This document shows positions 1 through 731 of a stretch of DNA of 5,076 nt, piece by piece. The notes under the pieces were generated by a model. That model saw only the letters and a program-made list of their open reading frames with translations, was not told the origin of the DNA and did no database searches. The first letter of the stretch is position 1. The number at the start of each line of letters is the position of its first letter. Source of the stretch: a virus (taxonomy: Duplodnaviria; Heunggongvirae; Uroviricota; Caudoviricetes); the IMG/VR virus record IMGVR_UViG_2663762849_000013; one strand, given 5' to 3'. Made by a program: the position numbers and the translations under genes.

Positions 1-41
1 GCTTTGAACTCTTTAGAGTAACGTTGGGTTTTTCTGCTCAT
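1..41 (-). CDS. IS3-family transposase OrfA, first 13 codons only (runs off the window)
   Basis: ATG at 41..39 on the minus strand, preceded by AAGGAG with about 7 nt spacing. The translation MSRKTQRYSKEFK shows the RYS-EFK opening typical of the IS3-family OrfA helix-turn-helix region. Confidence 0.75.
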   Translation of the reverse strand, partial: MSRKTQRYSKEFK

Positions 42-105
42 TATTAGCTCCTTCTGATGCCATTCTATTTCAGGAAGGAGTGTCCGTTAAACTCAGGCTA
101 CCTCA
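1..105 (-). mobile_element. IS3-family insertion sequence (IS600-like), left end with terminal inverted repeat; the element continues beyond the window start
   Basis: The minus-strand sequence from 105 downward reads TGAGGTAGCCTGAGTTTAACGGACACTCC, which has the TGA...CTGA.TTT...CAC layout of IS3-family terminal repeats. It is followed by AAGGAG and an ATG at 41..39 that opens MSRKTQRYSKEFK, matching the OrfA N-terminus of IS600-type elements as I remember it. The outer boundary at 105 is approximate. Confidence 0.8.
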
Positions 106-731
106 TCCTTTTCCGCTGCATTATAAATCATCATCCACTCATCAAAGGTCAGTCGTTGCCGTGATATCCGTACCTGTGGTTTTTTTGCCGATTCTGCAGG
201 GTTAAAGCCTGGCGAGACATCGCCCGTTTGCTGGGCCTCCCGGAAAACATCAATCAGTACTTTCCTGAAAATTTGTCCCATTCTGTTATGTCCTTTTGCC
301 TTGTAATCTTCCAGCACCGATACCACATCTTTTACGGTTATGGCATCTAATGGTCTGGTACCAAAACGTTCATCAAATACCCTGAGAGGGGATGCTTTCT
401 GTTTCAGTGTGTTGAGTTTGATCTCTCCGTTTTCATATCTTTCCTGTTGAATTTTTCGGTAACTATTCAGAAAAACAGAAACGGTTGATGAACCACCGGT
501 ATCACGAATAATTTTCTCCTGCAGAGTGAGCATTTGTTCCATTTGTTGCCTGGCAAGACGGCTGTTCGCTTCTGCTGCAATAGCTTCTGCCTGTTTCTGG
601 TCAATACTGCCGAGCCCGTGATTTTTTCCTGTTATGGGATGCCTGTAACGCCAGTAAACTTTGTTATTTCTTTTGTCAAAATACGGAGATAATCCCGGAA
701 CTTCAGTTTTATATTTTCGTGGGCGCGCCAT
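93..731 (-). CDS. int: Lambda-family tyrosine integrase, N-terminal arm-binding and core-binding portion only; truncated by the IS insertion (probable pseudogene)
   Basis: The 212-aa ORF opens MARPRKYKTEVPGLSPYFDKRNNKVYWRYRHPITGKNHGLG and contains RLTFDEWMMIYNAAEK, which parallel the lambda Int N-terminus and the YLKIYQAAE region. The last five codons (DEVA, stop) are read from the IS terminal repeat. No catalytic domain is encoded in the window. Its start overlaps the xis stop by 23 nt, as in lambda. Confidence 0.85.
   Translation of the reverse strand: MARPRKYKTEVPGLSPYFDKRNNKVYWRYRHPITGKNHGLGSIDQKQAEAIAAEANSRLARQQMEQMLTLQEKIIRDTGGSSTVSVFLNSYRKIQQERYENGEIKLNTLKQKASPLRVFDERFGTRPLDAITVKDVVSVLEDYKAKGHNRMGQIFRKVLIDVFREAQQTGDVSPGFNPAESAKKPQVRISRQRLTFDEWMMIYNAAEKDEVA

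Follow-up and report, generated by a model that had tools for sequence, protein, structure and literature searches.

Probable interruption of an ompW-type prophage integrase gene by IS600, with predicted loss of excision

A truncated integrase gene

The integrase gene (int) of a lambda-like prophage of the ompW type was most probably interrupted by insertion of IS600 at codon 209, an event which would leave the gene split and the element unable to excise; a probability of about 90% is assigned to this reading. The data come from a stretch of DNA of 5,076 nucleotides, from here on the window, which is the complete short-read contig CCBY01000343.1 (assembly GCA_000936105.1), with IS600 at one end and IS1 at the other. 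The window allele is an undescribed instance of a known phenomenon, in which integrase family, insertion sequence and attachment site are likewise known.

Both direct reading and the ORF listing place the truncated gene (int') on the minus strand, from a start at 731 to an end at 93 (93..731). Its product of 212 aa consists of 209 native residues followed by the tripeptide EVA and a TGA stop at 95-93. Residues 1-209 are identical to those of the intact 376-aa integrase WP_000113694.1 (L001 3498-4628); after residue 209 the intact protein continues with GYFLQRG..., as compared with EVA-stop in int'. A native stretch of about 207 codons had been proposed in the original prediction. The stretch itself is there, and its length needs correction to 208 codons plus 2 nt, the codon for Asp209 being restored, by chance, by the first base of the IS. 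The EVA tail and the TGA are IS600-derived: comparison with both IS600 ends in NZ_CP027325 identified the TGA as bases 11-13 of the terminal repeat, which runs in the window from 105 down to about 79, so that the frame does stop inside the IS repeat, as had been predicted.

The domain content of the 212-aa product was evaluated with Pfam, using cut-offs of 22 bits for PF09003 and 27 bits for PF22022. The arm-binding domain PF09003 is present at residues 2-71 (78.9 bits, E=2.8e-22). The core-binding domain PF22022 gives a weak match of 24.5 bits, under its cut-off of 27, and the domain was recognized by structural comparison, as residues 87-188, whose sequence is identical in the intact allele, align with the lambda Int structures 2oxo and 1p7d. 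The catalytic domain PF00589 has no Pfam match in the 212-aa product, and is located at residues 193-367 of intact WP_000113694.1.

The intact allele aligns end to end with the lambda Int structure 5j0n (E=4e-56), and the domain order is the same in the two proteins. In this alignment the equivalents of lambda R212 and K235 are R226 and K249, those of H308 and R311 are the His and Arg of an FHEQR motif, that of H333 is the His of LLGH, and that of Y342 is the Tyr of DIY; all of them, from R226 to the Tyr of DIY, are C-terminal to residue 209. The predicted loss of the catalytic domain, with its R-K-H-R-H-Y residues, from the product is thus borne out. With PF00589 missing and every catalytic residue located beyond residue 209, int' is a pseudogene fragment of the lambda-type tyrosine integrase family, not a functional member. 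The appropriate label for the 212-aa ORF would be integrase pseudogene fragment (IS600 insertion), rather than arm-binding-domain protein. None of the assignments made for int', IS600 and xis depends on chance-level matches.

The IS600 end

Elements of the IS3 family such as IS600 encode OrfA, with a helix-turn-helix (HTH) motif, followed by OrfB, a DDE transposase, joined by a programmed -1 frameshift in about 1.26 kb. The reference copy used here, 1264 bp in length and annotated as 'IS3-like element IS600 family transposase', is located in NZ_CP027325 (L002 2842-4105), where the transposase is noted for its 'programmed frameshift'.

Positions 1..105 of the window, on the minus strand, are the left end of IS600, matching the annotated end at 105/105 positions; the identity with this IS3-family element, suggested beforehand, is therefore exact over the 105 bp which lie in the window, the first of the element, where no difference from IS600 is found. 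When the complete E. coli genomes were searched by megablast, window 1-105 was matched by one genome, that of STEC 2013C-4830 (NZ_CP027325). Since the IS600 identity covers 1-105 in full, the boundary was placed at 105, the very position at which entry into the IS had been approximately set; identity to the intact int allele begins at 104. The terminal inverted repeat is imperfect, spans roughly 27 nt and has a TGAGG terminus; the two ends of the reference IS600 agree at about 20 of 27 bases.

OrfA reads leftward out of the window, as had been noticed: its ATG is at 41-39 on the minus strand and its frame, MSRKTQRYSKEFK, runs off the window edge. Thirteen codons lie within the window, and 36 aa are available in sister contigs, where they match PF01527 (HTH_Tnp_1). 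A sigma-70-like site, TTAACG-17-TAGAAT, is located at 62-90 on the minus strand, ahead of OrfA within the terminal region of IS600, and is plausibly the transposase promoter, as a putative assignment. When positions 1-1100 were scanned for promoters and terminators, no site rose above the chance level, sites being no more numerous than in shuffled sequence.

The intact allele and its distribution

Window positions 1-1100 were used as megablast query against 5,426 complete E. coli genomes. About 1,720 of them, in which the intact enzyme is located next to ompW, match the window from position 104 onward, and in strain SCU-104 the DNA identity over window 104-1100 is 100%. Of the 5,426 genomes, 1,729 carry the int gene, 1,721 of them in near-full-length form, disruption being rare (8 of 1,729 carriers without a near-full-length copy). 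These figures also settle the concern, raised together with the original prediction, that homologues may naturally end at the same residue: the allele with the same residues 1-209 runs to 376 aa, and the gene is intact in all but these few carriers.

In SCU-104, ompW directly adjoins int, followed by xis and by a gene for an 823-aa exonuclease. Identity between the SCU-104 allele and the integrase of prophage Sp9 of E. coli O157:H7 Sakai is 94.3%. The name PPompW has been given to lambda-like prophages that occupy ompW and have an att sequence of 121 bp (Nakamura et al. 2021, PMC8112680). The window shares with Sp9 and PPompW both the gene family and the chromosomal neighbourhood, with int beside ompW, then xis and exonuclease, but differs in that its int ends at residue 209 through IS600 and is without catalytic domain. 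On these grounds the window int is assigned, by sequence, to the ompW-integrating Sakai Sp9 / PPompW type.

The reciprocal junction

Since the window stops inside IS600, the far end of the IS and the 3' half of int are not seen in this genome. A simple insertion predicts, on the int sense strand, the order IS600 right end, a 3-bp GGA duplication and int codons 209-376. The corresponding junction DNA was constructed, ...GCCAGTACACCTCA|GGA|TGGTTACTTTTTACAGCG..., and the longest ORF over it has 179 aa, MVVSAIASTPQDGYFLQRGM...KKLVI. An exact-sequence look-up found the same 179-aa protein on record at NCBI (P0017), in two draft contigs, the longest of 14.7 kb, as a record of the same type as that of the int' product. 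An in-frame fusion of IS600-derived residues with Int residue 209, as in P0017, requires three additional bases, and P0017 was therefore taken as the product of the reciprocal end of the insertion. The matching copy of the target-site duplication would thus be found in the window at 106..108, reading TCC on the plus strand and GGA on the int sense strand, as deduced from P0017. By parsimony, the P0017 contigs and the window may be attributed to one genome.

The existence of the predicted product, exact over 179 aa, in public drafts supports a simple insertion of IS600 rather than a deletion. The integrase had been described as cut in two, and the two parts of this claim differ in how they are documented: the absence of the 3' half from int' is read directly from the ORF, and the splitting of the gene is supported indirectly, through the exact P0017 match in drafts.

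Both junctions are absent from all 5,426 complete E. coli genomes, as tested by megablast and by BLAST of the constructed reciprocal junction. Similarly, the int/IS600 junction 23-mer had no exact match in species-representative genomes or in IMG/VR viral contigs.

Occurrence in sister assemblies

The identical int/IS600 junction was found in 8 contigs from 8 different assemblies; these sister contigs are 99.8-100% identical to the window across the common length. The sister assemblies include GCA_000941195.1 and GCA_000939215.1. The 212-aa product is encoded on ten contigs, all of them short draft contigs, at most about 5 kb long, that stop in IS600. This distribution points to a single ancestral insertion, probably inherited within a clade so far represented by short-read drafts only, for which the IS600-int insertion may serve as a clean lineage marker.

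Some of the sister contigs show abrupt joins in the exonuclease gene, with no IS in between: to phage tail assembly and C40 peptidase genes in L006 (1-742), to the chromosomal gene yhhQ in L008 (1-250) and to a Phage_tail_T fragment in L009 (1-205). They may be either lineage-specific deletions or rearrangements, or assembly chimeras.

Proposed mechanism and alternative explanations

In the preferred reading, a 1264-bp IS600 would have transposed into int at codon 209, both reading in one direction. The 5' piece would then encode the arm- and core-binding domains plus three IS-derived residues, ending at the TGA of the repeat, and the entire catalytic domain (R-K-H-R-H-Y) would be displaced beyond IS600. 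Site-specific excision would consequently be lost, presumably locking the element in the chromosome, and the insertion would have been inherited by the clade of isolates represented by short-read drafts.

Two alternatives concern the structure of the locus. IS600 may have mediated a deletion or rearrangement, in which the 3' half of int and attL were lost or moved, making the gene truncated rather than split. The position of the far side of the IS outside the window leaves room for such an event, as do the IS-rich nature of the genome, with a contig bounded by IS600 and IS1, and the abrupt joins of exonuclease to unrelated DNA in sister contigs. However, an ORF with the 3-bp duplication, just as predicted for simple transposition, is on record, and the P0017 sequence is very unlikely unless IS600 inserted at the same nucleotide, which makes a deletion improbable. 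Alternatively, the IS600 end could be a chimeric short-read join in front of an integrase which is actually intact, an idea suggested by the repeats at both contig ends and by the suspicious joins in some sister contigs. A one-off chimeric join is excluded because eight separate assemblies carry the same junction; moreover, the IS boundary coincides exactly with TGAGG, the canonical IS600 terminus, and the reciprocal junction is recorded too, in P0017, so that the chance of an artefact is close to negligible.

Other alternatives accept the insertion and attribute a function to its products. The 212-aa fragment could be a retained DNA-binding protein, for example a regulator or an att-site decoy, considering that it keeps the native start, is 100% identical to the intact allele across 209 residues, is encoded by an ORF common to several isolates and is accompanied by an intact Xis. 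Perfect identity is equally expected after a recent insertion, and therefore carries no signal of selection; besides, the neighbouring genes are decaying, and no family of short homologues ending here was found, with 1,721 of 1,729 carriers being full length. Retention of the fragment for a function is thus highly improbable. A slightly different proposal, itself very unlikely, is that Int(1-209) and Xis form a working att-site-binding module, or that locking by the IS was selected for the retention of dicB and DicF. What speaks for either is limited to the ORF having stayed open and its presence in several isolates; if true, the Int(1-209)+Xis module might hinder integration or excision of incoming ompW-type phages.

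Xis and loss of excision

The excisionase gene xis is located at 709..957 on the minus strand, overlaps the start of int by 23 nt and encodes 82 aa. The prediction that it is intact was confirmed: 82/82 residues are identical to WP_000113186.1 of the intact prophage, and the Exc domain PF07825 is matched with 30.5 bits, over the cut-off of 23.

In lambda, excision takes place by strand exchange catalysed by Int, in a direction set by Xis. A polypeptide carrying the arm- and core-binding domains without the active site cannot recombine, a catalytic domain made separately lacks arm targeting, and Xis cannot itself cleave DNA strands. With the gene split by IS600, no single polypeptide would combine the DNA-targeting domains with the active site, and for this reason the prophage is predicted to be unable to excise by its own enzymes and to be locked in the chromosome. 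An integrase of the same specificity, provided in trans by another prophage, could in principle act on it. It is advisable to regard the remnant as an immobile element.

An independent IS600 insertion in the same gene

The genome of STEC 2013C-4830 (NZ_CP027325) also carries an IS600 in the int gene of an ompW prophage, in the same orientation as in the window. There, the insertion is located 186 bp further 3', the duplication is CAT (3 bp), and identity between its int allele and the window allele is no more than about 92%. The different insertion point, the different duplication and the divergence of the alleles indicate that the two insertions are independent events. In the STEC annotation, PGAP marks the int pieces flanking IS600 beside ompW as 'incomplete; missing C-terminus' and 'missing N-terminus'.

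Together with the STEC case, the window would represent a further example of IS-driven domestication and decay of prophages in IS-rich Escherichia/Shigella genomes. An IS landing in int may be viewed as an ordinary route to stuck prophages in these bacteria, and the significance of the present case is mainly one of annotation. The exonuclease gene of the STEC prophage is likewise interrupted, by IS3 and IS2.

Other decay and cargo of the prophage

Besides the IS600 insertion, this remnant bears further marks of decay. The exonuclease gene (1022..3493, minus strand) carries a nonsense mutation, TGG to TAG, at codon 185 (2939-2941). The alignment with the SCU-104 gene (823 codons) is gap-free, with 814/824 positions identical and one extra stop. 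The nonsense codon yields a 184-aa YdfE-like ORF and a C-terminal ORF of 632 aa; the latter, found as a product on this contig only, holds the Rv2179c-like exonuclease domain PF16473, as detected with Pfam. At the opposite end of the window, homology in the ydfC region ends at 4841, and from there IS1 is annotated (4842..5076, plus strand). This IS1 end encodes the N-terminus of InsA (GGTGATGCTGCCAACTTACTGAT...; PF03811/PF12759), runs off the contig and truncates the early region of the prophage past ydfC.

The early region contains dicB (3774-3962), ydfC (4531-4749), a DUF1482 gene and, on the minus strand at 4137-4188, the DicF small RNA (Rfam RF00039, 76.7 bits against a gathering score of 48). 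Since DicF is full-length and lies between dicB and ydfC, the remnant keeps a cell-division-inhibition module like that of Qin. The module dicB-DicF-ydfC-DUF1482 and the decay by multiple hits resemble those of the cryptic lambdoid prophages Qin and Rac of E. coli K-12, whereas the integrase and the attachment site (ompW) are different. The presence of IS copies bounding the contig on both sides is typical of the short-read assembly of an IS-rich Escherichia/Shigella genome.
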